Below are positions 3,183 to 27,536 of a stretch of 32,000 nt of DNA, piece after piece; position 1 is the first letter of the stretch, and the number at the start of each line of letters is the position of its first letter. The translations under genes were made by a program, and so were the position numbers. This stretch comes from Ruminococcus albus 7 = DSM 20455. GTDB lineage: Bacteria; Bacillota; Clostridia; Oscillospirales; Ruminococcaceae. The stretch covers positions 720,001-752,000 of the forward strand of contig NC_014833.1 in NCBI RefSeq assembly GCF_000179635.2, in the 5' to 3' direction. The notes beneath the pieces were generated by a model, which had not been told where the DNA came from, did not search any database, and saw only the letters and a list, made by a program, of their open reading frames with translations.

Positions 3183-4181
3183 ATGGCATTATTTGAATCT
3201 TATGAGAGAAGAGAAAAGCAGATCCTGGCTGTTATAAAGGAATACGGCATCAACTCTATCGAGGAGTGCGCTGATGTATGTAAGGCTAAGGGTCTGGATA
3301 TATACAAGCTCGTTGAGGGCATCCAGCCTATCTGCTTCGAGAACGCTAAGTGGGCTTACACTGTAGGCTGCGCTATCGCTATCAAGAAGGGCTGCACAAG
3401 AGCTGCTGACGCTGCTGCTGCTATCGGCGAGGGTCTTCAGGCTTTCTGCATCCCCGGTTCTGTTGCTGACCAGCGTAAGGTTGGTCTGGGTCACGGCAAC
3501 CTGGGCAAGATGCTTCTGGAAGAGGATACCGAGTGCTTCGCATTCCTGGCAGGTCACGAGTCTTTCGCTGCTGCTGAGGGCGCTATCGGTATAGCTGAGA
3601 AGGCTAACAAGGTTAGACAGAAGCCTCTGAGAGTTATCCTGAACGGTCTGGGCAAGGACGCTGCACAGATCATCGCTCGTATCAACGGCTTTACTTATGT
3701 TGAGACCGAGATGGATTATCACACCGGCGAGGTTAAGGAAGTATTCCGCAAGGCTTACTCCGAGGGCCTGAGAGCTAAGGTTAACTGCTACGGTGCTAAC
3801 GATGTTACCGAAGGCGTTGCTATCATGTGGAAGGAGAACGTTGACGTTTCCATCACAGGTAACTCCACCAATCCTACCAGATTCCAGCACCCTGTTGCAG
3901 GTACTTACAAGAAGGAAAGAACAGACGCAGGCAAGAAGTACTTCTCTGTTGCTTCCGGCGGCGGTACCGGCAGAACTCTGCACCCCGACAACATGGCAGC
4001 AGGCCCTGCTTCCTATGGTATGACTGATACTATGGGTCGTATGCACTCTGACGCTCAGTTCGCAGGTTCTTCTTCTGTTCCTGCACACGTTGAGATGATG
4101 GGTCTTATCGGCATGGGCAACAACCCCATGGTTGGTGCAACAGTTGCTTGCGCAGTTGCTGTTGAAGAGGCTATGAAGTAA
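3183..4181 (+). CDS. GGGtGRT family protein (function unknown)
   Basis: Contains the literal family signature FSVASGGGTGRTLHPDN. RBS AAGGAGG is 8 nt upstream. Separated from the NifU-like gene by 14 nt. Confidence 0.8.
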   Translation: MALFESYERREKQILAVIKEYGINSIEECADVCKAKGLDIYKLVEGIQPICFENAKWAYTVGCAIAIKKGCTRAADAAAAIGEGLQAFCIPGSVADQRKVGLGHGNLGKMLLEEDTECFAFLAGHESFAAAEGAIGIAEKANKVRQKPLRVILNGLGKDAAQIIARINGFTYVETEMDYHTGEVKEVFRKAYSEGLRAKVNCYGANDVTEGVAIMWKENVDVSITGNSTNPTRFQHPVAGTYKKERTDAGKKYFSVASGGGTGRTLHPDNMAAGPASYGMTDTMGRMHSDAQFAGSSSVPAHVEMMGLIGMGNNPMVGATVACAVAVEEAMK

Positions 4182-4933: not shown

Positions 4934-5202
4934 TTATTCAGAAAGCAATAGCTTTGATTTGATGACCTGTTATTAATAGTATGCCACAGGTAAGCGATAC
5001 TATCACTCACGTTATTTTGCACCGGGGAAAGTGTTGGTATTGCTGCGCTTTTTACAGGAATAGTTACGGATCTTTACAGAGCTGGAATATTGTTGCCTTA
5101 TCATCTATAATGGAGTCATATATAATATAGGACTGGGAGAGGCGAGCAAAATACGATCGTATTGATCAAAAAATTGCGGTTTCTGAGATGATTTCGTAAA
5201 AT

Positions 5203-5224
5203 ATATACATTTATAAATGTATAT
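5203..5224. repeat. Perfect 22-bp palindrome ATATACATTTA|TAAATGTATAT in the AT-rich spacer
   Basis: Read directly: the reverse complement of 5203-5213 equals 5214-5224. It lies about 200 bp upstream of the locus promoter. Function unknown; possibly a dimeric regulator site. Confidence 0.8.
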
Positions 5225-5423
5225 TGAAGTAAGTTTATGAGGTGTTAAATAGACAGAAAAGTTTGTAAAAATCGATGCAATTAATTGATAAAGAAAATTA
5301 ACATAAAATTAAGGCATGATTTTGAATGCGTACCTGCGTGCTTTACTCAAATGAATTGTACTTTACGATAAAAGTTTTAAGGGGTTAAGAAGGTTTTTTG
5401 TAAAAAAAACAGTAAATAAGGTA

Positions 5424-5452
5424 TTGACAAGAATTCACCGAAATGGTATAAT
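5424..5452 (+). promoter_or_regulatory. Consensus sigma-A promoter (TTGACA-17-TATAAT) at the head of the T7SS-like locus
   Basis: TTGACA 5424-5429, exactly 17-nt spacer, TATAAT 5447-5452. About 100-nt leader to ATG 5560. Confidence 0.6.
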
Positions 5453-5559
5453 CAAAAATGGAGAAAAATATATTTTGTAAAATAATTGTAATAATATCCA
5501 ATTGCAGTGCGTGCAAATTTGACACGTTGCTGTAAAGTTTGAAGAAGGGAGAGTTGCTA

Positions 5560-6213
5560 ATGACTTCGGGTGAAGCACACAGCTGTTATTTGAACGCTAA
5601 GTCAAAGTATGAAGATGCGATCGCAGAGAAAAATGCCTGCAGTGACAGCAAATACAGGCAGGAGATACTCAAAAGAGAAGCACAGGTAAGGCTTAATGAT
5701 TTTACAGCTGACAAGACACGTTTTACCACTGCTAAGGATGCCCTTGTAAAGACAAATATCCGTGATAAGGTAGACGATGATCTTAAAAGTGTTCATACAG
5801 AAATGGACGATGCTACCGAATATTTCAAGACGCTGGGTGAATCCAGCACAGGCACTATCGACCTCACCAAGCACATAATGAATGAGGACGACAAGACACA
5901 CAGAAAATCGGTAGTAAACAGGATATTCACTAATCTTGACAATGCAAAGAAAAAGGTGGATGACAAGATTACTGAGCTGGAAGCGAGCATCAAGAAGACA
6001 AACACAGAGATAGATGACGCTGAGGCAGAGATCAGGAGGCTTGAAAACCAGATAAGCTACTGGGACGGTGTCAAGAACGACAAGGCTAATGAGATGGAGA
6101 TGTATCTGTCACTTGAACGCAGGCTTGCTGCGGAGGAAGAAGAAGCCCGCAGAAAGGCTGAGAGAGAGGCTGCTGAAGCAGCCGCTGCTGCAGCCGCTGC
6201 AAACGCAGGGTGA
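5560..6213 (+). CDS. Coiled-coil protein with an Ala/Glu-rich tail; candidate T7SS accessory or helper protein
   Basis: Start moved to ATG 5560 (GAAGGGAGAG upstream). The sequence is heptad-like and highly charged (KKVDDKITELEASIKKTNTEIDDAEAEIRRLENQISYW). It ends AAEEEEARRKAEREAAEAAAAAAAANAG. No TM helix or signal peptide. Confidence 0.65.
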   Translation: MTSGEAHSCYLNAKSKYEDAIAEKNACSDSKYRQEILKREAQVRLNDFTADKTRFTTAKDALVKTNIRDKVDDDLKSVHTEMDDATEYFKTLGESSTGTIDLTKHIMNEDDKTHRKSVVNRIFTNLDNAKKKVDDKITELEASIKKTNTEIDDAEAEIRRLENQISYWDGVKNDKANEMEMYLSLERRLAAEEEEARRKAEREAAEAAAAAAAANAG

Positions 6214-6265: not shown

Positions 6266-7951
6266 ATGGCTAGTACTATAACGCTTCACAAGACGAAATT
6301 CGACGGTCTGGGAAGTGTACTTGACAAGCTTTGTTCGTGTTTTGGAAACTATGACTCTACTATGAAAGAACTCAAACGTTCTGCAAGCGGTGTTGACAGC
6401 ACGACCTGCGACCTTGAAGCAGTGATTGATGATATTTCCAACTCTGAAGAAAGCAAAGAAGAAAAGGTCAAGAGGGCAAAAGAGTTAAAATCCAAGCTGG
6501 ATACTTTTGTAAAATCTGCAGTACAGCATGAAAAAGATGCGGCTGATGAGATAGTAAAGAAGAAAAAAGATTTCTATAAGAAATACGATTATCTAAGACC
6601 TGACTCGGAAAAGAGCAGATGGGAGAGATTTAAAGAAAAGATCTCAGGTGTAGCAAAAGCTATCAAACAATGGATGTACGAACACCTTGATATGATCATA
6701 GCTGCACTTATAGTGATAGCTGCGATAGTCATCGTGATAGTGTGTCCTGCGGCTGTATGTGCTATACTTTCAATAATAGTAGGTGTTGCATCTGCGCTTA
6801 TGGGTATAGCAGATCTGGTTTGCCTTGCTGCTACGGGTAAAGATGTTGCAACATGGATGGATGAAGACATGGGATGGCATACAGCTAGCAAGATTTGGAA
6901 AGGCGTTGGATTAGGTCTTGATATAGCGAGCGTAATTTTGCCGATCGGTGCCTTGCCGTCTGCGGGAGCGAACGCATATAAAACAACGTTCAAAGAATTA
7001 ATAAGACATCCAATCAAATCACTCAAGGGACTTGGAAACAATATGGCGGTCAAGAATTTCGGAAATATGCTCAGACATCCGATAACGTCCCTCAAGGGAT
7101 TAGGAAAAGCAGGACTTAATACTGTTAAAGAAGCTTTTAAAGACGGTGCTCTAAAGGGCTTTAAAAACCTTGGAGCAGGCGGCTTGAAAATGTTGACAGG
7201 CTATGATGATCTGAAGAAAGGTAAGGCGCTGTTCAACGCATGGAAGAGTGGGCAGCCTGTGGGTGAAACGGCGATCAAATTACTTGGATTGGACAATATT
7301 GCAAGACTTGCCGGTTCATCAAATATGGAACGCTATGATAATATGCTGAACTCAAATAGTGATACCCTTGCTGAAGCAGTGTCGGGCAACAATATTGCTA
7401 CAGATTCGTTTACCCAAATGAAAGTAGATGTCACTACCGGTTCGGGTAATTCCGGTGATGCTTTATTCAATACTCTTAACGGCAATGATGAACTTTCAAG
7501 ACAACTGCTGGACAGCACTGGCGTTGATATGAGAAATGTTTCAAATGGAGATGATCTCTGGGATGCACTGAGAAATAACGGCTTTACGCTTGATACCAGT
7601 GCCGGTGGAGCGGCAGGAACTTCTAATGTATCTGTTGTTCCGTCATGGGCATACAGGGCTACTGACGGCGGAAGTGGTTCATTGCAGCTCATGACTCACA
7701 ACATCAGCGGCGTTAATCATGATTTCCGCCATAGCGTAATGCAGGACTATACAAGCTATATGAATACTATGAATAACATATTCCAGAATTCCTTTGCGAA
7801 CAATTGTGCAGATAATATGTTCAAAAAAGGAATGGAACATTTAATGGATGATGGGATCTTTGGTAATTTAGCCCCTAAACCACATAACCGTGTAGACGAT
7901 ATTATTCAAAGGACGTTCTTCAAAACTGTGGAAGCACCATGGCTTGGATGA
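6266..7951 (+). CDS. LXG-like helical N-terminus + 3 TM segments + variable C-terminal domain; candidate T7SS substrate or membrane toxin
   Basis: RBS GGAGG is 8 nt upstream. Residues 1-140 are helical and charged. TM stretches: IIAALIVIAAIVIVIVCPAAVCAILSIIVGVASALMGIADLVCLAA and a glycine-zipper-like GVGLGLDIASVILPIGALPSAGA. There is a duplicated (I/L)RHPI(K/T)SLKGLG. The Gly/Asn/Ser-rich C-terminal domain has a His-rich patch LMTHNISGVNHDFRHS. Confidence 0.6.
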   Translation: MASTITLHKTKFDGLGSVLDKLCSCFGNYDSTMKELKRSASGVDSTTCDLEAVIDDISNSEESKEEKVKRAKELKSKLDTFVKSAVQHEKDAADEIVKKKKDFYKKYDYLRPDSEKSRWERFKEKISGVAKAIKQWMYEHLDMIIAALIVIAAIVIVIVCPAAVCAILSIIVGVASALMGIADLVCLAATGKDVATWMDEDMGWHTASKIWKGVGLGLDIASVILPIGALPSAGANAYKTTFKELIRHPIKSLKGLGNNMAVKNFGNMLRHPITSLKGLGKAGLNTVKEAFKDGALKGFKNLGAGGLKMLTGYDDLKKGKALFNAWKSGQPVGETAIKLLGLDNIARLAGSSNMERYDNMLNSNSDTLAEAVSGNNIATDSFTQMKVDVTTGSGNSGDALFNTLNGNDELSRQLLDSTGVDMRNVSNGDDLWDALRNNGFTLDTSAGGAAGTSNVSVVPSWAYRATDGGSGSLQLMTHNISGVNHDFRHSVMQDYTSYMNTMNNIFQNSFANNCADNMFKKGMEHLMDDGIFGNLAPKPHNRVDDIIQRTFFKTVEAPWLG

Positions 7952-7991: not shown

Positions 7992-9518
7992 TTGGATTTT
8001 GATGAGTTGATGGCGGTCGGAAAAAATGCCTTTGTTACGGCAGATTTCAAAACGGCTGCTGAATATGGCGTTGAGGGACATAAGCTCAGACCTAAAGATC
8101 CCGAACCGCTTGAATTGGCAGCTAAAGCCTATCAGGCTATGGAAAACAGCAAAGAAGCTATATTCTACTTTCAGAAGGCTGCACAATGTGATATCGACAA
8201 CGGCGACAGATATGTGGAGCTTGGTGTAGCTTACGGCAGTAACGGAGATACCATGAAGGCACTGGAGGCTTTTGCGGAAGCTGAAAGGCATGAGATATCT
8301 GAGGATCACCTGAGCGGTATGTACAGGACACTTGCTATGGTGGATCAGGAGCTGGGAAGGTATGAGGATGCTATTGTAAATTTCACTAAGGCTCAGGAAT
8401 CCGGCACGATAGATATTGAACTGCTTATGTACAAGACTGTAGCTTGCTCGATGGCAGGAAAATACGGTGAGGCGCTCAGAACAGCCAACATGATCAAGCA
8501 GCTTGCTCCGACTTCGTATGACGGTTACGAACTGGCTTACACGATACTGGTCAATTTTGAACAATACGAGGAAGCCAACAAAGAACTGCTCAGAGCGAAG
8601 AAGTACGTCAAGGAACTCCCGATGGAATACTATTTCAGTGTTTCGGACTACGAGATGGAGATGTACAAGAACGACAAGGAAAATGATCATCTTGTGGCTG
8701 CACTGTGTATGCTGGATATGGGTCTTAAAGAAACAAAGCCTGATGTCGGAGAAGTTGTGAATGCTTATATAAAAAGCGCTGATATCTGTTTACAGGCAGG
8801 AAAATATGAGGAGGCACTGCAGATGCTGCAGGCTGCCGATCAGCCTGTGCAGTCTTTCAACGGCGGATTCTCGGTACTGCCTTGGGTAGAACCTCCCGAA
8901 TTTGATTCACCGCTGAGTGATGCTTATTTTGCGGCGAATTCGGCTAAGTATGACGGCATGAGTTCTGAGGAACTGAACAGGGAAGCCGAGGCTATGGCGG
9001 CAAAGGCGATGCAGGAGAGTGAAGAACCTGTAGATCCCGATATGCTGACACCTATACCCGAGGACAAGCCTGAGGAGTACAAACTCCCCAATGAGCCGAG
9101 AGAGCTCAGTGAAGAAGTAAAGGACAGGATGAATCTGCTTTATGTTACCGCGTACACAGCTCTCAATAAATATGACAGAGTACTTGAATACGCTATAAAA
9201 CTTCAGAGCAGCAAGGAAGCGACTCTGGTGAATACAGCGAGATACCTGGAAACAAAGGCACGTATCGACATGGGAGTGTCAGAACCCGAGAGGCTGTATG
9301 ATGAGCTCATAAGGTATTACAACAGGCAGATAATCAAGGATCCTTCTGATATATCCGTACTTGGATACAAGGTTCAGTGCTATATAGATCAGGAAAAGTA
9401 TGATGAGGCTATAAGCTACTGCAGAACGCTTTCCAATAACGTAAAAGAGCCGCTTATGAAACAGATAAGGGATGCTCAGAAGAAGTCTGAGGAGGGAGCA
9501 GAGGATGGCACGACTTAA
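7992..9518 (+). CDS. Cytoplasmic TPR-repeat protein
   Basis: TTG start 7992 (GGAAGGTG upstream), or ATG 8010. Repeated 34-aa helical-hairpin patterns are present (LELAAKAYQAMENSKEAIFYFQKAAQCDIDNGDRYVELGVAYGSNGDTMKALEAFAEA; again near the C-terminus EKYDEAISYCRTL). There is an acidic Pro-rich insert in the middle. No TM helix. Confidence 0.75.
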   Translation: MDFDELMAVGKNAFVTADFKTAAEYGVEGHKLRPKDPEPLELAAKAYQAMENSKEAIFYFQKAAQCDIDNGDRYVELGVAYGSNGDTMKALEAFAEAERHEISEDHLSGMYRTLAMVDQELGRYEDAIVNFTKAQESGTIDIELLMYKTVACSMAGKYGEALRTANMIKQLAPTSYDGYELAYTILVNFEQYEEANKELLRAKKYVKELPMEYYFSVSDYEMEMYKNDKENDHLVAALCMLDMGLKETKPDVGEVVNAYIKSADICLQAGKYEEALQMLQAADQPVQSFNGGFSVLPWVEPPEFDSPLSDAYFAANSAKYDGMSSEELNREAEAMAAKAMQESEEPVDPDMLTPIPEDKPEEYKLPNEPRELSEEVKDRMNLLYVTAYTALNKYDRVLEYAIKLQSSKEATLVNTARYLETKARIDMGVSEPERLYDELIRYYNRQIIKDPSDISVLGYKVQCYIDQEKYDEAISYCRTLSNNVKEPLMKQIRDAQKKSEEGAEDGTT

Positions 9519-9825
9519 AAAAGATGTTACGATAAATGATGAGGCTTTTGATAAAGCTGAGGATGAGCTGAATAAACTCATCACTCGTGCAGATCAGTTG
9601 AAAACTGATTTTAAAGATCTTTACGATGGATTTGCTAATGCACTTTTGTGCGAAACTGGCGACGAACTGAAGATCACCGGTGAGGAAGTAGTACTTAAAC
9701 CCATCGAGAATCTGGGCCTTGTTCTCAAGCAAGTACATGATACCCTTGAACTCATAAAGGGTGGCGGTTATTACAAGGATATATTCGATGATTTCGAGAA
9801 TTTGCAGAAAGGCATCACACCATAA
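9505..9825 (+). CDS. Small (106 aa) helical protein of WXG100 / Lap-like size class
   Basis: ATG 9505 with GGAGGGAG upstream, overlapping the TPR gene stop by 14 nt. The sequence MARLKKDVTINDEAFDKAEDELNKL... suggests two helical halves around CETGDEL. There is no true WXG. Confidence 0.5.
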   Translation: MARLKKDVTINDEAFDKAEDELNKLITRADQLKTDFKDLYDGFANALLCETGDELKITGEEVVLKPIENLGLVLKQVHDTLELIKGGGYYKDIFDDFENLQKGITP

Positions 9826-9863: not shown

Positions 9864-9936
9864 TACCTGCGATCAAATAAAAAACACAGCCGCTTATGCG
9901 GCAGAACAATGAGAGTTTTCAAGGAGGTATTTGAAA

Positions 9937-10290
9937 ATGGCTGAAACAATTCAGGATGTAGGAACAATGGGTACTCAGGGTACTGTGAACATGTCAACTC
10001 AGATGATGACAGATGCGCTGAAGGCTATCGAAGCATACAAGGGAGCTATCGAAACTGCATTTAATAATCTGAACACACAGTACGCTAACGTTACATCAAA
10101 CTTTACAGGTGATGCTGCTAACGGTCTGCAGGAATTCTATACAAACAAGATAGAGGCTATGCTGAAGCAGGAGGACGGCAGCGTATATCAGCTGCTGAAC
10201 GCTCTGAAGGGCTTCTGTGAAGCTGCACGCGATCAGATCCCCGGCGAGACAGGCGTAGACAATGAGCTTGGTAAAGTCAACAGACAGTGA
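9937..10290 (+). CDS. WXG100-family-like protein with a degenerate motif (F-T-G)
   Basis: 117 aa. Very strong RBS AAGGAGG 9 nt upstream. Helix-turn-helix layout, with NFTGDAANGLQEFY at the position and context of W-x-G-x-A. C-terminal tail GVDNELGKVNRQ. Confidence 0.7.
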   Translation: MAETIQDVGTMGTQGTVNMSTQMMTDALKAIEAYKGAIETAFNNLNTQYANVTSNFTGDAANGLQEFYTNKIEAMLKQEDGSVYQLLNALKGFCEAARDQIPGETGVDNELGKVNRQ

Positions 10291-10314
10291 TATAACGGAA
10301 AGGAGAAATATACT

Positions 10315-10629
10315 ATGGATTGTATGATCAAAAATGCTGAGGTCAAGGACGCAGCTAACACTATCAAGACTACTATAAAGGATGAGTTTGCAACTGCAGG
10401 TTCTGCTCTCGTTACTTCTTTCAATGCAGCTATCGCTGATATGAAGGGTGAGACTAAGGACGCTCTGGAAGAGTTCTTCAATACCAATATCCGTGATCTC
10501 GTAAGCAGCGAGGAGAGCGGTATACCCGCAATGGTAATGGGATTTGGCGATCTGATCGAATCTAACCGTGTACAGTTCGCTTCTGTAGACCATACCATAG
10601 CTGAGAGCATCAAGGGCGGCGCACAGTAA
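10315..10629 (+). CDS. WXG100-like partner protein (M-K-G in place of W-x-G)
   Basis: 104 aa. AAAGGAG RBS. Lies 24 nt after the previous gene. The central turn DMKGETKDALEEFF matches the EsxB-type partner layout. Confidence 0.6.
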   Translation: MDCMIKNAEVKDAANTIKTTIKDEFATAGSALVTSFNAAIADMKGETKDALEEFFNTNIRDLVSSEESGIPAMVMGFGDLIESNRVQFASVDHTIAESIKGGAQ

Positions 10630-10697
10630 TATCCTTTTCGGATCTTTAAAGCATTCTTCCGCAGTATTGCGGGGACAGTGCTGAATTGAGCTGGTAA

Positions 10698-10742
10698 GCA
10701 GCAGGTATGTCCTGTGGACATACTGCTGCATACTGCTTTTCA
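10698..10742 (+). terminator. Hairpin plus short T-tract after the esx-like pair (terminator/attenuator)
   Basis: GCAGCAGGTATGTCC (10698-10712), loop TGTG, GGACATACTGCTGC (10717-10729; one bulged base), then ATACTGCTTTT. Confidence 0.45.
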
Positions 10743-10880
10743 ATTATATATGGCAGTAATTTGTCTGATAGCTTTGAAGTTGTTCTGTTTTGTAAGCGGT
10801 GCTTTGTATTCATTAAAGTTATCAGTTTTTTAGTTTTTTGGATAGTATTTCTGTGTAGGCAAATAAATGAGGTGGAATTA

Positions 10881-12044
10881 ATGGCTTTTCGGGTATTGAG
10901 TGAAGAAGAGATAGAGAGATTGACTCCCGATCAGAGAGATATCTATGAATACAATTTAGATATGTATCTTAAAAGAGTACGCTTTGTAGAGAATCTTGAG
11001 AGGTTGGCTAAAGTCAAGTTTGGCGAGATAAAACTGGATCTCAAGCCTATTCCGAAAACGCTCAAGCCGGCTGAAGTTAACTTCAAGGAGATCGAAAAGA
11101 AGCCTGTTGCTGCACCGAAAGTACCGGTACCGCAGGTGAGATCGGGAGAATATAAAGTGCCCGAAATGAAGAAACCCGAGGGTTACAAGGTGTTTGTGCC
11201 TTCTGTCGGTGCACATAAGTATATTGCACCGGAACCTGTAAAGGTCAAGGGCTTCAAGGTAGTGACTCCGGAAGTAAACAAGGGTGAGTATAAAAAGCCC
11301 GAGATGCCTGTGATCGGGGAGATAAAGAAGGTAGTACCCGAAGTAAGCAAGGTAGAATTCAAAAAGCCTGAGATGCCTGCTATCGGGGAGATAAAGAAGG
11401 TAGTACCCGAAGTAAGCAAGGTAGAGTTCAAAAAGCCTGAGATGCCTGCTATCGGGGAGATAAAGAAGGTAGTACCCGAAGTAAGCAAGGTCGAATTCAA
11501 AAAGCCTGAGATGCCTGCTATCGGGGAGATAAAGAAGGTAGTACCCGAAGTAAGCAAGGTCGAATTCAAAAAGCCTGAGATGCCTGCTATCGGGGAGATA
11601 AAGAAGGTAGTACCCGAAGTAAACAAGGTAGAATTCAAAAAGCCCGAGATGCCTGCTATCGGGGAGATAAAGAAGGTAGTACCCGAAGTAAGCAAGGTAG
11701 AGTTCAAAAAGCCTGAGATGCCTGCTATCAGGGAAGTAAAGACGGTAGTGCCCGAGGTAAGCAAGGTTGAATTCAAAAAGCCTGTTAGGGCGGCTGTGCC
11801 TCATGTTAAGGTGGTCGTACCCGAAATATCTCTCGGTGAGGCAGGCAAGATAGCGAGAATGCCTTCGGTACCAGCAGTAGAACCTGTAGTACCCGAAGTG
11901 GCATCGGTAAACTTTGTTAAGCCCGAGATAGCAAAACCGGTGGGCGTAAAAGTAGTAGTGCCAAAGATAAGCGCCGATATCGAGTCGGAAGCTGCAGAGA
12001 TCCTGAAAAAATTGCGGAGTGAGTTAGCGAATGAAAAACAATGA
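10881..12044 (+). CDS. Pro/Glu/Val/Lys-rich tandem-repeat protein (387 aa), translationally coupled to essC
   Basis: Start moved to ATG 10881 (GAGGTGG upstream). The ORF-track start at 10707 would read through the terminator hairpin. There is an about 60-aa helical N-terminal domain, and the rest is 23-aa KKPEMPAIGEIKKVVPEVSKVEF-type repeats. No signal peptide or TM helix. The stop overlaps the essC ATG by 14 nt. Confidence 0.7.
   Translation: MAFRVLSEEEIERLTPDQRDIYEYNLDMYLKRVRFVENLERLAKVKFGEIKLDLKPIPKTLKPAEVNFKEIEKKPVAAPKVPVPQVRSGEYKVPEMKKPEGYKVFVPSVGAHKYIAPEPVKVKGFKVVTPEVNKGEYKKPEMPVIGEIKKVVPEVSKVEFKKPEMPAIGEIKKVVPEVSKVEFKKPEMPAIGEIKKVVPEVSKVEFKKPEMPAIGEIKKVVPEVSKVEFKKPEMPAIGEIKKVVPEVNKVEFKKPEMPAIGEIKKVVPEVSKVEFKKPEMPAIREVKTVVPEVSKVEFKKPVRAAVPHVKVVVPEISLGEAGKIARMPSVPAVEPVVPEVASVNFVKPEIAKPVGVKVVVPKISADIESEAAEILKKLRSELANEKQ
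11292..11774 (+). repeat. Seven near-identical in-frame 69-bp tandem repeats
   Basis: Unit starts at 11292, 11361, 11430, 11499, 11568, 11637 and 11706. Copies differ by a handful of mostly synonymous changes (GTA/GTC, GAA/GAG, CCT/CCC), one Ser/Asn change, and diverged first and last units. Degenerate copies extend to roughly 11150 and 11960. Confidence 0.95.
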
Positions 12045-15000
12045 GATAATGGTTTCGGCACGATTTTCAAAGAAAGACGGAGATGCTTTTGTAAAGTCGC
12101 GCGAGCTGACATTTCTTGTATTGAAAAGCATAACCCTGCGTGAGCTGACAGAGGGAATATTCTACGGTCTGAGGAAAAAAGCCAAAAGTGGTTTCGACTT
12201 CGGTGATGTTGAGCTTTCAATGACTGAGTGCTATGAGATAATGAAGGAGTATTTGCAGAAATATCCTTTTATCAATATTAAGTACAAGTCCATAGGATTT
12301 ACTGATTGCAAGGATATCAAGCAGGAGCTGATCACGGAAAGCTGTATTGATTTCAACAGGATCATCGCAGATTATGACGGCGAGGAGAATGTTAAGATAT
12401 ACGATCTTACGCTGGAAGAACTTGGTATAGTTACGGCTTCGGTGCTTGATTTCAGGCTTGATGCTGTTAAAGCGGCAGGACCATATATATTTACAGACAG
12501 TGATGATAAGCAAATGACATCGCCGTCTTATGTTGTAAAGGAGAAGAATCTGGAATACAACATAAGTACACGTGATATAAACGTTGTTGAGCCTTCGGTG
12601 ATAGAGATAGCACCTGCGGGAGAATATCCCAAGATAGAGGGCGGCGCGCTGGGCGGTTCGATGCTTACATCTATGATATCCATTATGATGGGTGTCGGTA
12701 TGCGTGTCGGTATGCGCTATATGGGCGGAAACTCTATGGCAACAATGGGTAATTCCATGATAATCATGTCGGTGGGAATGGGTCTTGTATCCGCCACGAC
12801 CATGCTTGTAAACGGCATAAGCCAGCGAAGGAAGTCCATACGCAACGCTGATGACTGGGTGAGCAACTACGAATCTTACGTACTGAAAAAACTCAAGCAG
12901 ATAGAGGATTATCAAAGACAGGATATACAGTACATGAAAACTGTATACCCAAATGTGGACAAGCTATTTGACGGTGTGCGAAATGCTTCGGATGCTATAT
13001 TCTCACGTTCGCACAATGATGATGACTATCTTATGATATCCCTTGGACAGTCAAGGCAGATAGAGCCTATGTTCACTATAAGTGCAGAGAAAAAAGATGA
13101 GGGTCTTTCTGAGCCTATAACTTACAGGCTGGAACAGATCGTAAATCCGACGAACGATACTCACTTTGTTTTCAGGATAGATCAGCCCGATGAAAAGGCA
13201 AGGACGAAACTGCGCAAGACACAGCGAAAGCTGCGCAAAAAGGATAAGAAAAAGGGTACGACGGAGCTTAAAAACATCGTTGATGTCAATAACTCTGACG
13301 AGCTGCTGCTTTCGGAGCTGGCTTATGATCTGGCGCACAATGATCCTGCGGACATAAGCACTACGGATAACAGCGCCAACACAAGAAACAGGGTAGGTTT
13401 CAGATATCTGAGGGATTACAGGAATCCCAAGAATCTGCCTCCACTGCTTTTTGAGATGAAAAACTGCGGTGCACTTGGCGTTATATATGATCCTGTCAGC
13501 GAAGAAACGGTGAAGAACGAAGGCGATCCTGCGCTTAATTTTATACGTCATGTGGTGTTTGAACTTTCGTATTATCATTCGCCTGAGAATCTGCAGTTCG
13601 TATTCTTTTTCAAGCGCACGAACGATATTGACGAGCGTGACCGCACTATCGAGAACTACAAGTACCTTCCGCATACAAACGAGTTGTTTGGAAATTCCCT
13701 TTCGCAGTTCGTATTCGATAAGAAGAGCGCCGGTGATGTGTACAGTGCGCTGTTCGGAATAATGAACGAGAGAAGCGGAAGCATAAAGACTGGTGATGAT
13801 AACGGTGACGGCGGCGATGAAAAATCCGAGGATCCGAATTTCACGCAGATAGTCTGCATAATGTTTGACGACTACGATATCAAGGAAACGGTGTTTTCAA
13901 GATTTCTGCCCGAACCCCCGAAGCAGGGTGAGGATTTCAAGAACAAACTGGGATTGTCTTTTATATTCCTGAAAGACAAGAAGGGTATGCTGCCTAAATA
14001 CTGCAGCAGTCTGATAGAGCTTTGCACAGGTCCGAGAGGTGAGCTGACAAGGCGCTACAACGTACTCTCCCGTGAAACACTGGCACACAACAGTAATGCT
14101 GCAGATACAAGCAGTATGGTGGATAAAAAGAGATTTGAGAGCGATTACCTTTTCAAGGATCATTTTCAGTATCTTGATCATAACAACAATACCTGCAGGG
14201 TCGATGTCAAGAAAGATTTCGGCACTGCTTACAGGCAGCTGAGTTCGCTGTACTACAAGCGTATAGCTGAAAACGGCAAGGTGCCTGATGTGGTATCACT
14301 TTTTGAGATATGGGGGATAGACCAGGAGGCTGTCACGGATGACCCTGCACAGAGCAAGGTGTACACTATGATAAAGGACTACTGGGATTCTCCGCAGAAC
14401 GATATCACCAAGGGGCTCAGTGTGCCAATAGGCAAGAACGAGCATGGCGTCACTTATCTGGATATGCACCAGAACGGTGACGGACCTCACGGGCTTGTTG
14501 CGGGTACTACAGGTTCAGGTAAGTCAGAGACACTGATAACCTATGTTATCGGCTGCTGTATGAAATACAGGCCAGATGAGCTGAACTTCATGCTGGTAGA
14601 TATGAAGGGCGGCGGCTTTTCTGACAGACTTGGCAATCTGCCGCATCTGGTCGGCGCTGTTACCAATACCACAGGTGAGGCTGAGGGTATCGCGCCCGAG
14701 TATATGCTGAAGCGATTCCTGGAAACGCTGAATGCCGAGATAAAGAGGCGCGAAGTAGTTCTGAAAGAACTTGATACGGATAATATAGATTCGTATATGA
14801 GGACTAGAAAGACCGTCCTGAAATACCGCGAGGAGATACAGAACGGTACAAGGACGCTGACCTCGATAAAGAAAGAATTCATAAACAAAGATAACAGGAT
14901 AAAAGCTTGTGATCCCGAAAACCCCGAACCCAAACCGCTTTCACATTTGCTTTTGATAGTGGACGAGTTTACGGAGCTGAAAAGATTTTCAAGCGAGAGC

Positions 15001-15561
15001 AACGATATAGATTTTATCAAGGATATAACCACCATCGCCCGTGTGGGCAGAACTCTGGGATTCCATATCATACTGGTGTCACAGAACATTGAGGGTGCTA
15101 TAACCGAAGATATACGTGTAAACTCCAAGGCGAGGATATGTCTGAAGGTGGCTACTAAGAGTGCATCAAAGGACATGATAGGTACGCCCGATGCGGCTGC
15201 GGCAACTATGCCGGGACATGGCAGAGCGTACATACTGGTAGGTACGGGAAGCAGATACGAGTATTTCCAGTCTGCATACACCGGTGCCAACAGGAACCTG
15301 TCCATCAAGGGAGATGTCAATATGACATTAGTGCCTGAATGCGGCGGATTTGATGACAGTTTCTATAATTCCAAAAAGGACAATATCAGAATGGCAAGAC
15401 AGAACAAGAATGTCAATGAGGATGACAATCAGCTCAACTACATCATCAACACGATAAATGCGCTGAAAGATGATTATGAGCCGTCAATACAACTGTTCCT
15501 CAATCCGCTGAAGGCTGATGTTGATTCGGTGATGGACAAGACAGAATGGGAGGGTATCTGA
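12031..15561 (+). CDS. essC: T7SS FtsK/SpoIIIE-family ATPase, EssC/EccC-like, part a (N-domain, 2 TM, degenerate ATPase-like region, first canonical P-loop domain)
   Basis: Gly/Met-rich TM pair: GGALGGSMLTSMISIMMGVGM...IIMSVGMGLVSATTMLV. Walker A: PHGLVAGTTGSGKSETL. Walker B: HLLLIVDEFTELK. Also ARVGRTLGFHIILVSQ and GHGRAYILVG, typical of FtsK/SpoIIIE translocase domains. RBS GGAGTGAG. Confidence 0.85.
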   Translation: MKNNEIMVSARFSKKDGDAFVKSRELTFLVLKSITLRELTEGIFYGLRKKAKSGFDFGDVELSMTECYEIMKEYLQKYPFINIKYKSIGFTDCKDIKQELITESCIDFNRIIADYDGEENVKIYDLTLEELGIVTASVLDFRLDAVKAAGPYIFTDSDDKQMTSPSYVVKEKNLEYNISTRDINVVEPSVIEIAPAGEYPKIEGGALGGSMLTSMISIMMGVGMRVGMRYMGGNSMATMGNSMIIMSVGMGLVSATTMLVNGISQRRKSIRNADDWVSNYESYVLKKLKQIEDYQRQDIQYMKTVYPNVDKLFDGVRNASDAIFSRSHNDDDYLMISLGQSRQIEPMFTISAEKKDEGLSEPITYRLEQIVNPTNDTHFVFRIDQPDEKARTKLRKTQRKLRKKDKKKGTTELKNIVDVNNSDELLLSELAYDLAHNDPADISTTDNSANTRNRVGFRYLRDYRNPKNLPPLLFEMKNCGALGVIYDPVSEETVKNEGDPALNFIRHVVFELSYYHSPENLQFVFFFKRTNDIDERDRTIENYKYLPHTNELFGNSLSQFVFDKKSAGDVYSALFGIMNERSGSIKTGDDNGDGGDEKSEDPNFTQIVCIMFDDYDIKETVFSRFLPEPPKQGEDFKNKLGLSFIFLKDKKGMLPKYCSSLIELCTGPRGELTRRYNVLSRETLAHNSNAADTSSMVDKKRFESDYLFKDHFQYLDHNNNTCRVDVKKDFGTAYRQLSSLYYKRIAENGKVPDVVSLFEIWGIDQEAVTDDPAQSKVYTMIKDYWDSPQNDITKGLSVPIGKNEHGVTYLDMHQNGDGPHGLVAGTTGSGKSETLITYVIGCCMKYRPDELNFMLVDMKGGGFSDRLGNLPHLVGAVTNTTGEAEGIAPEYMLKRFLETLNAEIKRREVVLKELDTDNIDSYMRTRKTVLKYREEIQNGTRTLTSIKKEFINKDNRIKACDPENPEPKPLSHLLLIVDEFTELKRFSSESNDIDFIKDITTIARVGRTLGFHIILVSQNIEGAITEDIRVNSKARICLKVATKSASKDMIGTPDAAAATMPGHGRAYILVGTGSRYEYFQSAYTGANRNLSIKGDVNMTLVPECGGFDDSFYNSKKDNIRMARQNKNVNEDDNQLNYIINTINALKDDYEPSIQLFLNPLKADVDSVMDKTEWEGI

Positions 15562-15564
15562 CAG

Positions 15565-17439
15565 ATGACGGAAAGCATCATAGTTCAACTTGGAAAATAC
15601 GATGTTCCCATTCTGCAGAAGCAGCCTGATTTTGAGGTCGATCTGCTGAAGTCGAACATACTCCTGTTCGGTTCACCCCAGAGCGGCAAAACTAATCTTA
15701 TAAGGCTGATAATCAATATCCTTCACAAGAAGATGAATGTAGAGGACGAGCAGATATTCATACTCGATTTCGGCGGCGCACTGGCTGATTATCAGACTAT
15801 GCCGCTGGTATCAGCGTATTTTGACAATTCCAATGAGGAGTACGTAAAGCGTGTTTTCAAGATACTGGAAACCAAGCTGAAAGAAAACACAAGGGCTTTG
15901 CAGGGTGTGGGATTTGCTGCTAAAAAGGAAGGTCAGCCAAGGCATATAACTTTTTTTATAGACAACTTCAATTCATTCCTTGATGAACCGAGATATCAGG
16001 GCTATCAGGAAAAGTTTGCAAGACTTTGCCGTGACGGTCTGTCGAAAGGTATCTCCGTAGTGGTGACTGCATCGGAGAACAAGGGAATGACTTCATACAT
16101 CAATAACCTTGGGCAGAAGATCGCTCTCAACCTTTCTGATGACAGGTACGGTGAGATCTTCGGCGGAAAGGTATCAAGCATAGGAAACATACCCGGACGC
16201 GGTTTTGCGAATATTACCATGAGACTTCGCGAAAAGGACCGCAAGGGGAAGTATCACGAGATAACGGGTACCTACAACATAAACTCGCCCTATGAGATAC
16301 ACTGCAGCTTCGCAGAGGATATAAACAAGGGTGATTTCAGGATAAATCTCCACAAGAAATTTCAGTACGATGCAGATAAGAAGTGCTTCGGTAAAGAGGT
16401 GGAGAAGTACAAGATATTCCCGCAGACCTTCGGTGTGGCTGAATACTATCATCAGCTGGAGGGCGAACAGGATATAACCGATCCGCAGTATGAAGTTGCT
16501 GTTGGGCTGGACTATGTAGATTTCAAGCCTGTTGTGGTCAATTTCAAGGATTCACGTTTTCTGGCGGTATACGCTAAGCGAGGTGCCGGACAGGATCAGC
16601 TTCTGGACAGGATCGTTACTAACCTGATGGAACATGACACAAGAAAGCTTGTACTCTTTGATGACGGACGCGGTCAGCTGAAGATGCTCAAAGATAAGTT
16701 CCCGGCGGCAACGTACATATCACAATATGTGGCTAGGAGCGAGCTGGAGAAGGAAAAGCCGAAAGAGCCCGAACCTGTGGTGTCCGCGGCATCAGCTATG
16801 ATGGGTGGTAGGACATCGGCAGGCGGAAGCTTTTTCAGCGGGCAGAAGGCTGAGCCGAGATTCGCGAAGCCCCCCGAGATAAGCAAGCCTGTGATACCTC
16901 AGGGATCAAAGCTTTCACCTATGCAGCAGCTTATAAAATACATACACGAGGAATGCGTGGATGTGGGCAACTTTGCGAGCCTGCTTTACACGGGCAAGGA
17001 GTATCTTTCCATGCTGGAGAGAAATCCGAATGTGCCTATAGGGTGCCTGGATACTTTCCGTGACCCGACGGTATTCGTGCTGCACAGCAAGCTGGTATAC
17101 AGCTCGGTGCGGGAAAACAAGCAGTTCCTTGAATACATCATGCCGATACTTTCCGATATGGCGGAGGAAAGAGATTACATATTCATATTCTCAGACGTAA
17201 GGAAAATGTCGGACATCGAGATGAATGATAAGTTCAATACTCTGGTACACACGGCATTCGTGCTTGATAATATCGCGGAGTTCGTATCGGAGAAAGGACA
17301 GAAGACCATATTCGGTGATCTCGATGTAAAGATGCTGAAAGCAGATTACGCGCTCTGTGAAAAGGGCGATGGTTATTATTATGACGTAGAGGCGGACAGC
17401 CTGAAAAAGTTTAAGATGATACAAGAGGAGGATTTCTGA
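15565..17439 (+). CDS. essC: EssC/EccC-like ATPase, part b (one canonical and one degenerate nucleotide-binding domain)
   Basis: Walker A NILLFGSPQSGKTNLI with ITFFIDNFNSF. The second domain has a degenerate P-loop FLAVYAKRGAGQDQLL (no Lys-Ser/Thr). It is in the same reading frame as part a, separated only by TGA-CAG. GGGAGGG lies 10 nt upstream of ATG 15565. Confidence 0.8.
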   Translation: MTESIIVQLGKYDVPILQKQPDFEVDLLKSNILLFGSPQSGKTNLIRLIINILHKKMNVEDEQIFILDFGGALADYQTMPLVSAYFDNSNEEYVKRVFKILETKLKENTRALQGVGFAAKKEGQPRHITFFIDNFNSFLDEPRYQGYQEKFARLCRDGLSKGISVVVTASENKGMTSYINNLGQKIALNLSDDRYGEIFGGKVSSIGNIPGRGFANITMRLREKDRKGKYHEITGTYNINSPYEIHCSFAEDINKGDFRINLHKKFQYDADKKCFGKEVEKYKIFPQTFGVAEYYHQLEGEQDITDPQYEVAVGLDYVDFKPVVVNFKDSRFLAVYAKRGAGQDQLLDRIVTNLMEHDTRKLVLFDDGRGQLKMLKDKFPAATYISQYVARSELEKEKPKEPEPVVSAASAMMGGRTSAGGSFFSGQKAEPRFAKPPEISKPVIPQGSKLSPMQQLIKYIHEECVDVGNFASLLYTGKEYLSMLERNPNVPIGCLDTFRDPTVFVLHSKLVYSSVRENKQFLEYIMPILSDMAEERDYIFIFSDVRKMSDIEMNDKFNTLVHTAFVLDNIAEFVSEKGQKTIFGDLDVKMLKADYALCEKGDGYYYDVEADSLKKFKMIQEEDF

Positions 17440-17777
17440 TGGCAGACGAGTTTGTAGTAGATGACAGCGTATTCAAGTCCGTTGATATAACTAAAATTGC
17501 AGCTTTTATAAATAAAGCACCGGGGCTTGTAGATGAGTTTGAAAAGATCAAAGAAGACTTCAATAATGTCAATAGTGAGCTGCTGGCTATCTGGGTAGGC
17601 GAAGGCGCTGATGAGTACAAGCAGGAAACAGATCATATCCTTGAAAAGATAGGTGACCTGAAAACTACGATAGAAGCGATCAATTCGACTACTCTCGCGG
17701 ATATAAGAAAGCAGTTCAGCGACGCTGACGATGAGCTTGGCAAGTTCAATAGGCAACAAGCCAGTGACGGGGAATAA
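17439..17777 (+). CDS. WXG100 family protein (canonical W-V-G)
   Basis: 112 aa with LLAIWVGEGADEYKQ in the central turn. The ATG overlaps the essC-b stop (TGATG). C-terminal DADDELGKFNRQQASDGE. Confidence 0.8.
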   Translation: MADEFVVDDSVFKSVDITKIAAFINKAPGLVDEFEKIKEDFNNVNSELLAIWVGEGADEYKQETDHILEKIGDLKTTIEAINSTTLADIRKQFSDADDELGKFNRQQASDGE

Positions 17778-17786
17778 CATTCTGTT

Positions 17787-17957
17787 ATGGCAAATGGTTT
17801 TGTGAACAGCACTGACAATTTTCAGCAGGAAGAGGAATTCGACCCGCAGGAAAAAGTTGTACAGGTGCAGAATAAGAAGTATGAGACCGAAAAGAAAGTC
17901 GAAGAGAAATTTCAGGTCAATATATTTGATCTGCTCGGATTTATAGACGAAGACTGA
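17787..17957 (+). CDS. Possible small acidic protein (56 aa), below the ORF-track cutoff
   Basis: MANGFVNSTDNFQQEEEFDPQEKVVQVQNKKYETEKKVEEKFQVNIFDLLGFIDED. It fills the otherwise empty 185-bp gap between the WXG100 gene and the kinase gene. Only a weak GGGGAA lies 12 nt upstream. Confidence 0.3.
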   Translation: MANGFVNSTDNFQQEEEFDPQEKVVQVQNKKYETEKKVEEKFQVNIFDLLGFIDED

Positions 17958-17962
17958 TCGGA

Positions 17963-19900
17963 TTGGAGCATCGCAGCTTTATGCAGATACACGGCACTAA
18001 ATTCACTTACACGATAGATACCAGCTATGAAGATCTGTACAGATACGGCGATGGTTTTATCGCACGCGGTACAGAGAGTATAGTATACAAAGGCATAAGA
18101 GCGGCGGAGGGTATCTCCAGCGAGAACATCCGCATGAGCTGTGTGCTCAAATTCAAGCGCAGAGGTATCAATGACAGGATACTAAGGCGTTTCAAAAGCA
18201 AGGATCTGAAGATATTCAATGATCTTCAGGGCTGCCGTTCGGTCGTAAGGATATACGATCTTATAGAGGATCTTGGTGATTTTTCTATCAGGTTTGAACA
18301 CGTGGCTGAGGGTGAGGAAGAATTCTACATAGACCGTCACGGATTTTTCTGTGTGGTCGAGGAATTTATCGAGGGCAAAACTCTTGAAGAATTCTGTCTG
18401 GAATACGGTGAGTTCCCTCTGGTCATGAGAACAAAGACGGCTGTTACGGGGTATGATGATTACAGCGATGAAAACAAGGAACGTACAAGAAAGTATGTTA
18501 CGGACAATGATTTCTGTCTGCGCTTTCAGAGTGTGATATACAACTTCGCTGTAAAGCTGTGTGATGTGCTGGATTATATGCACAGGAACAGGATACTCCA
18601 CATGGATATAAAGCCCGATAATATCATGATAACAAATGCGGGCGATGAGGTAGTGCTTATTGACTTCGGCAGGGCGAGCTACATGGATTACGGCAAGGAT
18701 TACGTAACGGTGCAGTTCGGCGGAGAAAGTGCCGAGGAGTACGGTACAGTGGGATATGCAGCGCCTGAGGCGTATAATCCCGTGATGGTCCCTCATGCAC
18801 ACTTTACCTCTGAAAATATGAACGGTGAGCTGGAGAATGGCTGTCGTCTGACAGTGGAGAGCGATATCTTTTCACTTGGCGCGACGCTGTGGGAATGCAT
18901 GAATATATTTGTACTCTACATGAACAATACAGAGTACCGCAAGAAATTCTCAAACGGTTATCACTATCAGCGTTTTTTTGATACACCGGCGATGCTTAAT
19001 GAGGATGCATACTGCAACCGTGATCTTTCGCTGGCTTCGGTGCATTTTTATGAAAAACTGGAGCAGATAATCAAAAAGGCGACAAGATCCAGGACCCATG
19101 ATTATTATGACAAGGACAACAAGAATTATTATCACGACTACGCATCGCTGAGGGATGATATAATAGATGCAAAGGAACGTTCACCTGCGGTGCTGAGGAC
19201 TGATGATATAAAGGTGCGTAATTCCTTTACTGTCAGTGCAGTCTTTATGGGGCTGCTGACGACACTTCTGTGTTTTCTCGGATTTTTGTATTTCTTCGGC
19301 GGCTATTTTGCAGAGAAGAAGATAGATACCATTATGGAAAGCTATCAGGTCTCAAAGCATGATGCGCTGAGAAAGGCTGCAAAGGAGCAGATGAAGGCGA
19401 CAGATCCTGAGGGCAGGAAGGGTATTTACGAGAAAATATACGATTTTTATTATAATGAAAATGACGGTGCTGATACAAAGGGCATGAGTGCTGAGGAGGC
19501 TGAGGATCTGGCACAGCTGCTGGATCTGATACCTGACAAGAGGTATTCACGGGAGAAGTTCGATGAGCTTCTTGGCAATACCGACAGGCAGGTACTCATG
19601 GTATTCTCGGAATATGCTGCAGCTGCAGATCTTGATATCAAGGATGACAGCGAATGTATCAGCTATGAGATACTGGAGAAGATATACGAGTCAAGACAGC
19701 CGCGATATGCAAATGATTGCTATGAGGTGCTTGTAAAGTACGGTGACAGGAATGAGTACCGCAATTTACTGGTATACCTTGCGAAGCAGCTGAATACTGA
19801 CGAAAAGATCGACAAGATAGTTGAACAGCAGGAAAGTGACGAGCCTGATGCTATCGTCAGACGTGCTGTCAGGGATAATCTTGAAAGCTTTGAGGAATGA
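17963..19900 (+). CDS. Membrane-anchored Hanks-type Ser/Thr protein kinase (non-RD) with a C-terminal helical domain
   Basis: Kinase subdomains are readable: RGTESIVYKG (G-loop-like), CVLKFK (Lys), VVEEFIEGKTLEEF, ILHMDIKPDNIMI (HxDxKxxN), LIDFGRA (DFG), GTVGYAAPEA (APE) and ESDIFSLGATLWE. Single TM helix VSAVFMGLLTTLLCFLGFLYFFGGYF at about residues 425-450. TTG start at 17963, or ATG at 17981. Confidence 0.8.
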   Translation: MEHRSFMQIHGTKFTYTIDTSYEDLYRYGDGFIARGTESIVYKGIRAAEGISSENIRMSCVLKFKRRGINDRILRRFKSKDLKIFNDLQGCRSVVRIYDLIEDLGDFSIRFEHVAEGEEEFYIDRHGFFCVVEEFIEGKTLEEFCLEYGEFPLVMRTKTAVTGYDDYSDENKERTRKYVTDNDFCLRFQSVIYNFAVKLCDVLDYMHRNRILHMDIKPDNIMITNAGDEVVLIDFGRASYMDYGKDYVTVQFGGESAEEYGTVGYAAPEAYNPVMVPHAHFTSENMNGELENGCRLTVESDIFSLGATLWECMNIFVLYMNNTEYRKKFSNGYHYQRFFDTPAMLNEDAYCNRDLSLASVHFYEKLEQIIKKATRSRTHDYYDKDNKNYYHDYASLRDDIIDAKERSPAVLRTDDIKVRNSFTVSAVFMGLLTTLLCFLGFLYFFGGYFAEKKIDTIMESYQVSKHDALRKAAKEQMKATDPEGRKGIYEKIYDFYYNENDGADTKGMSAEEAEDLAQLLDLIPDKRYSREKFDELLGNTDRQVLMVFSEYAAAADLDIKDDSECISYEILEKIYESRQPRYANDCYEVLVKYGDRNEYRNLLVYLAKQLNTDEKIDKIVEQQESDEPDAIVRRAVRDNLESFEE

Positions 19901-19913
19901 GAGGTGTGATAAA

Positions 19914-20273: not shown

Positions 20274-20290
20274 AGGAGAGGGGAAGATAT

Positions 20291-27479: not shown

Positions 27480-27536
27480 TATTGTGATAAACTTTCAGCA
27501 AAAAAATGGTGATAAATTTATGAAAGGGTGGGTTCT

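Follow-up and report, generated by a model that had tools for sequence, protein, structure and literature searches.

A repeat-protein gene overlapping essC

The window analysed here is the whole stretch of 32,000 nucleotides from position 720,001 to 752,000 of the forward strand of contig NC_014833.1 of Ruminococcus albus 7 = DSM 20455 (assembly GCF_000179635.2), and our subject within it is a gene on the plus strand (10881..12044, stop codon included) whose 387-residue product consists largely of proline-rich units of 23 residues. The gene lies in a type VII secretion system (T7SS) cluster that encodes, in this order, a tetratricopeptide repeat (TPR) protein, three small WXG-like proteins, the repeat protein, the N-terminal and then the C-terminal part of the ATPase EssC, another WXG-like protein, an open reading frame (ORF) of about 50 residues, a kinase and a giant protein with Ig-like domains. 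The repeat protein is probably a new accessory part of the T7SS of rumen and gut relatives of Ruminococcus.

The ORF in the gene's frame spans 10707-12044, and its true start is the ATG at 10881. The same MAF start is found in every homologue, and a ribosome-binding site, GAGGTGG, can be read in the sequence at 10869..10875 on the plus strand, 5 nt upstream of the ATG; AAATGAGGTG at this site is invariant across the alignment of the leader described below. These observations confirm the coordinates given for the gene in a preliminary description, which had been made from the letters of this DNA alone. The ORF, its homologues and purifying selection on the units in this frame together define the gene. 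Two minus-strand ORFs over the array, of 282 and 197 aa, were rejected as shadows of the repeat, since both the homologues and the ratio of non-synonymous to synonymous divergence (pN/pS) back the plus-strand frame.

The stop codon of the gene (12042-12044) sits 14 nt within essC, which starts at 12031, giving an overlap at 12031..12044 on the plus strand as the preliminary description had stated. This essC start is confirmed by the conserved EssC N-terminus, which reads MKNNEIM in the window; of the 14 related loci retrieved, 11 have MKNNEI[MLIV]. In other loci the junction is either a 4-nt overlap (ATGA; L006, L008 and L010) or a gap of 1-22 nt (L011, L001 and L007), and co-expression of the two genes is therefore favoured. 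Scans around the gene for sigma-70 promoters and for terminators returned promoter-like sites at or below, and terminator-like sites at about, the numbers expected from shuffled sequence.

Architecture of the protein and its family

The protein has three parts. The N-terminal domain (residues 1-67; 10881..11081, plus strand) consists, judging from AlphaFold2 models and 24 diverse family members, of a short helix (residues 8-12), a long helix (residues 16-44) and a conserved KP-rich tail. Family-wide this module is about 60 residues long and starts with MAF[RK][IV]L; M1, F3, L6, Y22, Y29 and R32 do not vary among the 24 members, L14 and F35 hardly vary, and AlphaFold2 run on a 50-sequence alignment gave residues 1-40 a predicted local distance difference test score (pLDDT) of 91-98. 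At the other end, residues 367-387 (11979..12041, plus strand) are predicted to form an amphipathic helix preceded by a VVVPK/[VI]P[DE] element; AlphaFold2 places the helix at residues 365-385, with a pLDDT of up to 84 in this block, and the pattern [VI]P[DE]-x4-[DE]-hydrophobic-x-x-L-hydrophobic is recognisable in most full-length members.

Between these ends, residues 68-366 form 13 consecutive units of 23 residues when the register is anchored on [FY]xxP. All lie on the plus strand: three degenerate units (residues 68-136; 11082..11288), seven near-identical ones (residues 137-297; 11289..11771) and three further degenerate ones, the last with a one-residue slip in register (residues 298-366; 11772..11978). 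AlphaFold2 gave no secondary structure in residues 50-363, at a pLDDT of about 45-60, whether it was supplied with 4 or 50 sequences, and neither run thus predicted a beta-solenoid or other fold that would account for the 23-residue period.

Tandem Repeats Finder described 11256-11784 as a repeat with a period of 69 bp, 7.6 copies, 93% matches, 0% indels and a score of 877. The seven near-identical units read [YF]KKPEMPAIGEIKKVVPEVSKVE in the F-register and lie at 11292-11774 in the KKPEM register; units 3 and 4 are identical, units 1-6 are separated by 0-4 nt and 0-2 aa, and unit 7 stands 7-10 nt apart from the rest. The seven nearly identical 69-bp repeats of the preliminary description were thus recovered by both Tandem Repeats Finder and our unit table. 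The more diverged flanking copies that it had placed between about residues 90 and 360 are also present, three on each side, and extend slightly further, from residue 68 to 366. What it had overlooked was that the 23-residue period is strict throughout the family and that the C-terminal helix is conserved.

Proline, glutamate, valine and lysine make up 59.7% of the protein, which has a net charge of +16. Like the PEVK region of titin, to which the preliminary description had compared it, the protein is dominated by these four residues, tandemly repeated and predicted to lack stable secondary structure. The resemblance is nevertheless one of composition only: the PPAK units of titin, a eukaryotic muscle protein, are 26-28 residues long, whereas the period here is exactly 23, with a motif of the form F-x-K-P-E ... 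L-P ... K-P, and Pfam gave no match. The highest mean Kyte-Doolittle hydropathy over 19 residues is 0.91, so that the protein has no transmembrane (TM) segment, and no signal peptide was found in it. The short helical N-terminus, the unstructured centre (in the AlphaFold2 models) and the absence of a signal peptide and TM helix, all proposed earlier, are therefore supported.

A word-indexed search found only three relatives, P0001-P0003, which are 252-274 aa long and 44-45% identical to the window protein; the N-terminal 72 residues alone retrieved nothing by this search, which missed the known relatives too, a limit of the index. When 1.84 billion cluster representatives were scanned exhaustively with HMMER, 61 proteins were returned at E <= 1e-3, nearly all of them matching from residue 1, and a further profile search enlarged the family beyond these; at 50% identity it amounts to about 60 clusters. 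Across the family the centre varies in sequence, composition and length (an estimated 7-21 units, median 14). The sole name attached to any member in any source is "hypothetical protein [Ruminococcus sp.]". Among the genomes with the gene are two bins at species level that bear the label uncultured Ruminococcus (one is a rumen RUG bin); other members come from termite gut and further metagenomes.

Searches against known families were negative: neither the window protein nor any of the 42 family members scanned matched a Pfam family above noise, the window protein matched 0 NCBIfam families, and PDB chain sequences, searched with profiles of the whole protein and of the N-terminal part, gave no significant match. 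Sub-threshold matches to the PHA02142 OB-fold, CDT1, a designed HeliScrew protein and an HMG box were dismissed as noise. Consistent with the preliminary suggestion of a T7SS component without a known family, and with no recognised repeat family accounting for the array in Pfam, NCBIfam or PDB, we judge from these comparisons that this is an unannotated, conserved protein family defined by its three-part architecture. The window protein has all three features, namely the N-terminal helix, the 23-residue periodic centre and the C-terminal helix.

Selection on and turnover of the units

Between the seven units of the window, synonymous divergence (pS) is 0.14-0.20 and non-synonymous divergence (pN) 0.012-0.026, giving a pN/pS of 0.09-0.13. 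In one relative (L002), where nine 23-residue units of a quite different sequence, GKAEYEAPVLAKPDVAAVTTPVV, are clearly recognisable, the corresponding values are 0.46, 0.068 and 0.15. Because synonymous divergence between units far exceeds non-synonymous divergence, the units are not merely young copies, and their peptide sequence is held uniform by purifying selection. The recent expansion proposed in the preliminary description is accordingly an incomplete account: near-identical as they are at the DNA level, the units are less young than it implied.

Near-identical arrays built on different unit sequences occur in the window protein, L002, P0001-P0003, P0006, P0031 and P0042, and homogenisation and expansion have therefore happened repeatedly and independently. 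Among P0001-P0003 the unit is 22 residues long and close relatives differ by exactly one unit (two in P0003, three in P0001 and P0002). Together with the range of about 7-21 units in the family, this bears out the suspected variability in copy number among relatives; within the species, on the other hand, all three assemblies have seven units.

Two of these three are independent metagenome contigs, L004 and L005, which match the window at 98.9% identity over 2.7 kb and 99.3% over 14 kb, respectively, and carry the same in-frame array of seven units. The three alleles differ at 3.3-3.7% of sites inside the array as against 0-0.6% elsewhere in the gene, and between L004 and L005 there are 16 differing sites within the array and 0 outside it. 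Many of these differences fall at recurring positions of the unit, mostly third codon positions (0-based 8, 62 and 65), and the states at these positions are spread differently among the units of each allele. This pattern is a signature of gene conversion or unequal exchange among units, part of which could be mimicked by mis-phasing of short reads.

The same observations bear on whether the array could be an artefact of short-read assembly, or low-complexity sequence without function that has expanded within what is otherwise a small helical protein. Units of 69 bp are hard for short-read assemblers, one contig (L003) ends inside its own array, and the concentration of allelic differences in the array, with its possible share of mis-phasing, is what such an explanation would lead one to expect. 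Against it, three assemblies agree on an in-frame array of seven units, long 23-periodic centres are present in all full-length family members, and a pN/pS of 0.09-0.15 between units indicates selection on the encoded peptide. We therefore consider this explanation very improbable, and the collapsed or expanded reads against which the preliminary description had cautioned are not evident.

The strict 23-residue period

Successive [FYW]xxP motifs across the family are spaced by 23 residues in 73 of about 160 gaps and by 46 residues in another 18, where shuffled sequences lead one to expect about 0.5 per bin. The autocorrelation of individual proteins likewise peaks at 23 or 46 in most members, including P0053, P0019, P0021 and P0070, in which the units are only loosely alike. 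A unit profile built from 106 non-redundant units in 27 proteins has the consensus F-x-K-P-E-x3-P-x-L-P-x3-K-P-x-V, with F in 72% of units (Y in 18%) at column 1, P in 81% at column 4, E in 48% at column 5, P in 28% at column 9, L in 46% at column 11, P in 40% at column 12, K in 34% at column 16, P in 41% at column 17, and V or I in 53% at column 19. Some units also fit PxLxxP, a motif bound by TPR-type chaperones of the type III secretion system (T3SS), such as PVLAKP in L002 and PELSRP in P0053; those of the window (PEMPAI) do not, and we take the motif as a lead only.

Repeats that keep an exact unit length although their sequences are little alike are typically folded, or are modules that bind a periodic partner; entropic linkers do not typically behave in this way. 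On one reading of the period, the array would be more than a passive linker: as in nebulin or the tape-measure proteins of phages, each 23-residue unit would bind one subunit of a repeating partner, and the number of units would set the length or stoichiometry of a T7SS-associated structure. Candidates for such a partner are WXG-like dimers arranged in a stack or filament, the tandem Ig-like domains carried by the giant protein, and EssC protomers; the number of units, 7-21, would be tuned by homogenisation and by gain and loss of units, and the structure might possibly be the missing conduit through the Gram-positive wall. We regard such a template as improbable; were it real, type VII secretion would have its first known ruler or template protein.

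Genes of the cluster

The cluster order given above recurs in relatives down to about 20% identity (L001, L006, L007, L008/L009, L010, L011 and L013), and on two short contigs (L002 and L012) essC lies immediately downstream of the repeat-protein gene. Of the 11 lineages in which the DNA beyond the gene is readable, 10 have a split essC as the very next gene, L014 being the exception, and the repeat-protein gene belongs to a TPR/WXG-like/split-essC/kinase cluster in the window and 10 other lineages examined. With homologues as distant as 20-25% identity in this position, linkage of the family to the T7SS, on which the preliminary description had rested its proposal, is strongly supported by gene order.

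Upstream of the repeat-protein gene lie the gene of the TPR protein (7992-9518) and those of three small helical proteins (9472-9825, 9931-10290 and 10315-10629), one of which has a weak WXG100 match. Downstream, the N-terminal part of essC (12031..15561, plus strand; 1176 aa) covers an N-domain, a membrane region and the first FtsK-type ATPase domain (PF01580, 1.1e-24; TIGR03928 EssC, 9.7e-116, a match that falls below the curated cut-off). The C-terminal part, a separate ORF of 624 aa (15565..17439, plus strand), holds further ATPase domains and matches TIGR03928 positions 784-1154 at 7.4e-38 and TIGR03925 EccCb at 2.6e-30. The split thus follows the first ATPase domain, as it does in every related locus; EccCa and EccCb of mycobacterial ESX-1 are divided in the same way. 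The first 240 residues of EssC are well conserved (MKNNEIM.SARF...LSFLVLKDI.L) and gave no match to FHA or any other Pfam family even at E <= 10; their sequence pattern hints at a ubiquitin-like fold of the YukD type.

The next WXG-like gene (17439-17777) is followed by an acidic ORF of 56 aa (17787-17957), which separates it from the kinase gene. ORFs of 49-58 aa occupy the same place in L001, L007, L008, L011 and L013, and this one is for that reason likely to be a real small gene. The cluster then continues with a membrane Ser/Thr kinase of the Hanks type (17963-19900; Pkinase, 6.5e-21), in which the catalytic-loop motif HMDIKPDN is intact and the DFG motif present, a small membrane protein (19821-20273) and a 1961-aa protein with several bacterial Ig-like domains (20270-26155).

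The conserved kinase raises the possibility that the repeat protein is a regulatory scaffold whose units are phosphorylated on Ser or Thr, switching the assembly or activity of EssC. Kinases are found repeatedly among recently described T7SS variants (PMC11217815). Ser or Thr is present in most units, with Ser about 1.9-fold enriched three residues past the motif proline. Such a scaffold is nonetheless unlikely, since none of the 23 profile columns conserves a Ser or Thr (S in column 23 comes closest, at 21%), the cluster proteins scanned showed neither an FHA domain nor another phospho-reader, and the seven core units of the window hold only one Ser each, replaced by Asn in one of them.

Two WXG100-like proteins of the locus (9931-10290 and 17439-17777) share a C-terminal motif, VDNELGKVNRQ and ADDELGKFNRQ, and this EssC may recognise such proteins by the shared D[ND]ELGK[VF]NRQ tail. 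A 561-aa protein encoded upstream of the TPR gene (6266-7951) has hydrophobic segments near residues 140-200. Its first ~115 codons lie in a segment that is 95% identical at the DNA level to L005, a strain otherwise 99% identical, in which the remainder of the protein is swapped for unrelated sequence in a 621-aa ORF (L005 3075-4940). An exchangeable C-terminal part of this kind would be expected of a polymorphic T7SS effector, as which the protein may be read. One related locus, L007, also contains a PT-HINT toxin gene and an Imm33-like gene, which fit the usual antibacterial role of Firmicute T7SSs.

Between the last of the three small genes and the repeat-protein gene lies a conserved and structured 5' leader (10630..10880, plus strand). 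Its mean column identity with L001, L002 and L003 is 81%, above the roughly 76% blastn identity to L001/L003 over 9902-11068, a segment that takes in two WXG-like genes, the leader and the 5' end of the repeat-protein gene. The predicted RNA fold has a z of -3.5 relative to shuffled sequence, the consensus structure includes a hairpin with compensatory changes and 8 such pairs in all, and in the predicted outer helix a conserved AUCUU pairs with GAGGU of the ribosome-binding site. Rfam gave no match in the leader or anywhere else in the window. From alignment and fold, the 250-nt leader is a candidate cis-regulatory RNA for translation of the repeat-protein gene and essC. In the distant loci L006, L008 and L011 only about 75-80 nt stand in its place.

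Two further observations concern other parts of the window. The ORFs 27528-28808 and 28522-29370 together encode the EIIB, EIIC and EIIA parts of a phosphotransferase system; they share about 290 nt, read in different frames, and each holds part of the EIIC match, which may reflect a frameshift (a pseudogene or a sequence error). Outside the T7SS cluster, the gene at 3183-4181 very strongly matches the GGGtGRT family (PF14057, E = 7e-192), a family without a known function.

Relation to known systems

Extended, partly repetitive centres between end modules are found in the proline-rich spacer of TonB and in the T3SS rulers YscP and FliK, where length sets distance. The repeat protein shares with these an extended or disordered repetitive centre between what may be functional ends, but it belongs to a different secretion system and, by Pfam and hydropathy, has no TM anchor, TonB C-domain or T3S4 domain; a ruler role can be put forward as a hypothesis only.

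The closest functional analogue is EspK (Rv3879c) of ESX-1, in which independent N- and C-terminal modules are joined by a long unstructured low-complexity linker and which has been proposed to rope EspB to EccC/EccCb1 (PMC9811218). Both are proteins encoded in a T7SS locus with two end modules and a long linker between them. In the repeat protein, however, the end modules are single helices of about 20-45 residues and not globular domains, the linker is a strict repeat of a 23-residue motif and not generically Pro/Ala-rich, and the host system is a Firmicute T7SS variant. Our profile searches of PDB chains, a set assumed to hold the EspK C-domain (PMC9811218), gave no match that would relate the two.

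As for the cluster as a whole, Garrett, Higginson and Palmer (2024) described eight added variants, T7SSc to T7SSj, from RefSeq genomes (PMC11217815). Components of T7SSd, T7SSe and T7SSj include the kinase TsxD, the giant Ig-like protein TsxI, the small membrane proteins TsxH/K, and TsxC proteins with N-terminal FHA domains (PMC11217815). The window cluster resembles these in having a membrane Ser/Thr kinase, an Ig-like protein of about 2000 aa, small membrane proteins and several WXG100-like genes, but its EssC is split into two genes and has no detectable FHA domain, and no soluble cytoplasmic proline-rich repeat protein is among the components in that paper. Ruminococcus is mentioned neither there nor in the supplements searched, and our literature searches found nothing specific on a T7SS-linked disordered repeat protein or a Ruminococcus T7SS. 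We infer that the Ruminococcus-type cluster is a new T7SS subtype, set apart from the published variants by their descriptions.

Possible functions of the repeat protein

With its gene flanked by three to four small WXG-like genes, the protein might itself be exported by the T7SS and act outside the membrane as an extended spacer, a wall-spanning element or a length ruler. Its terminal helices would then pair with each other or with WXG-like proteins into a bundle that the machine recognises, and the number of units would set a distance. Lys/Glu/Pro-rich repeats are typical of the wall-spanning segments of Gram-positive surface proteins, the T7SS has no known conduit through the wall, a strict unit length and a lineage-specific count of 7-21 units would suit measuring or templating, and in L014 the gene adjoins that of a giant secreted Ig-like protein.

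The export signatures, however, are missing. The window protein has no WXG100 match (PF06013, TIGR03930) and no Trp at all, and AlphaFold2 predicts a single long N-terminal helix with no hairpin of the WXG100 type. Nor do the window protein and the 42-sequence family consensus contain a YxxxD/E motif, the residue at +4 being Leu after Y22 and Val after Y29. The C-terminus lacks the D[ND]ELGK[VF]NRQ tail of the two WXG-like proteins of the locus, and no wall anchor was seen. Effector genes, moreover, vary between strains, as the swapped 561-aa protein of L005 illustrates, whereas the repeat-protein gene is fixed in place. Export is thus doubtful in our view. The protein also does not correspond to the T7SSb core components EsaA, EssA, EssB or EsaB/YukD, having no NCBIfam or relevant Pfam match and no TM segment.

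We tentatively favour, with a probability of roughly 0.45, a cytoplasmic accessory component that is co-expressed with EssC and serves both as a two-ended tether and as a multivalent docking array. The repeat protein would be made together with EssC as part of a distinct Ruminococcus-type T7SS, its N-terminal helical module and C-terminal amphipathic helix serving as docking sites. One of these is the probable contact to EssC, and the other would hold a substrate, a chaperone or a further component of the machine. The centre would be an extended array of 7-21 proline-rich 23-residue units (13 here, seven of them near-identical), whose motif F-x-K-P-E ... L-P ... K-P-x-V could act as a flexible spacer and a multivalent docking track, concentrating identical partners such as WXG-like dimers or the TPR protein of the cluster at the ATPase.

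We favour this tether and docking array because of the fixed place beside essC, the lack of export signatures, the conserved termini, the uniform units and the precedent of EspK. Conserved ends with a variable centre are the pattern expected of two docking modules joined by a spacer, and units that remain alike in protein despite synonymous divergence fit the binding of the same kind of partner by each unit.

Several points weigh against it. A plain tether needs no exact 23-residue unit, and this strictness, which the tether explains only loosely and which is the main point left without a structural explanation, points to a templated or folded state. Substrates of the EsxA type are also fixed in position, so synteny is compatible with export, and a low pLDDT is not proof of disorder. 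In L014 the gene (5003-6202; P0004/P0007 subfamily) is followed by that of the giant secreted Ig-like protein (6225 onward) and not by essC, an order that hints at a functional link between these two proteins or at a rearranged cluster. Finally, while gene, family, architecture, periodicity, selection and synteny are observed, we infer from sequence that the protein is cytoplasmic, which partners it has and that it acts as a tether and docking array.

Firmicute type VII secretion is known mostly from Staphylococcus and Bacillus. The cluster of the window, with a split essC without FHA and an extra conserved gene, fits none of the eight variants of 2024 as described, and the repeat protein would be a new, family-defining T7SS component. 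Its family is annotated as "hypothetical protein" everywhere, and short-read assemblies break within the array. The combination of low identity, exact unit length, purifying selection and repeated homogenisation offers a handle on what brings substrates together at EssC or what fixes distances in type VII secretion.

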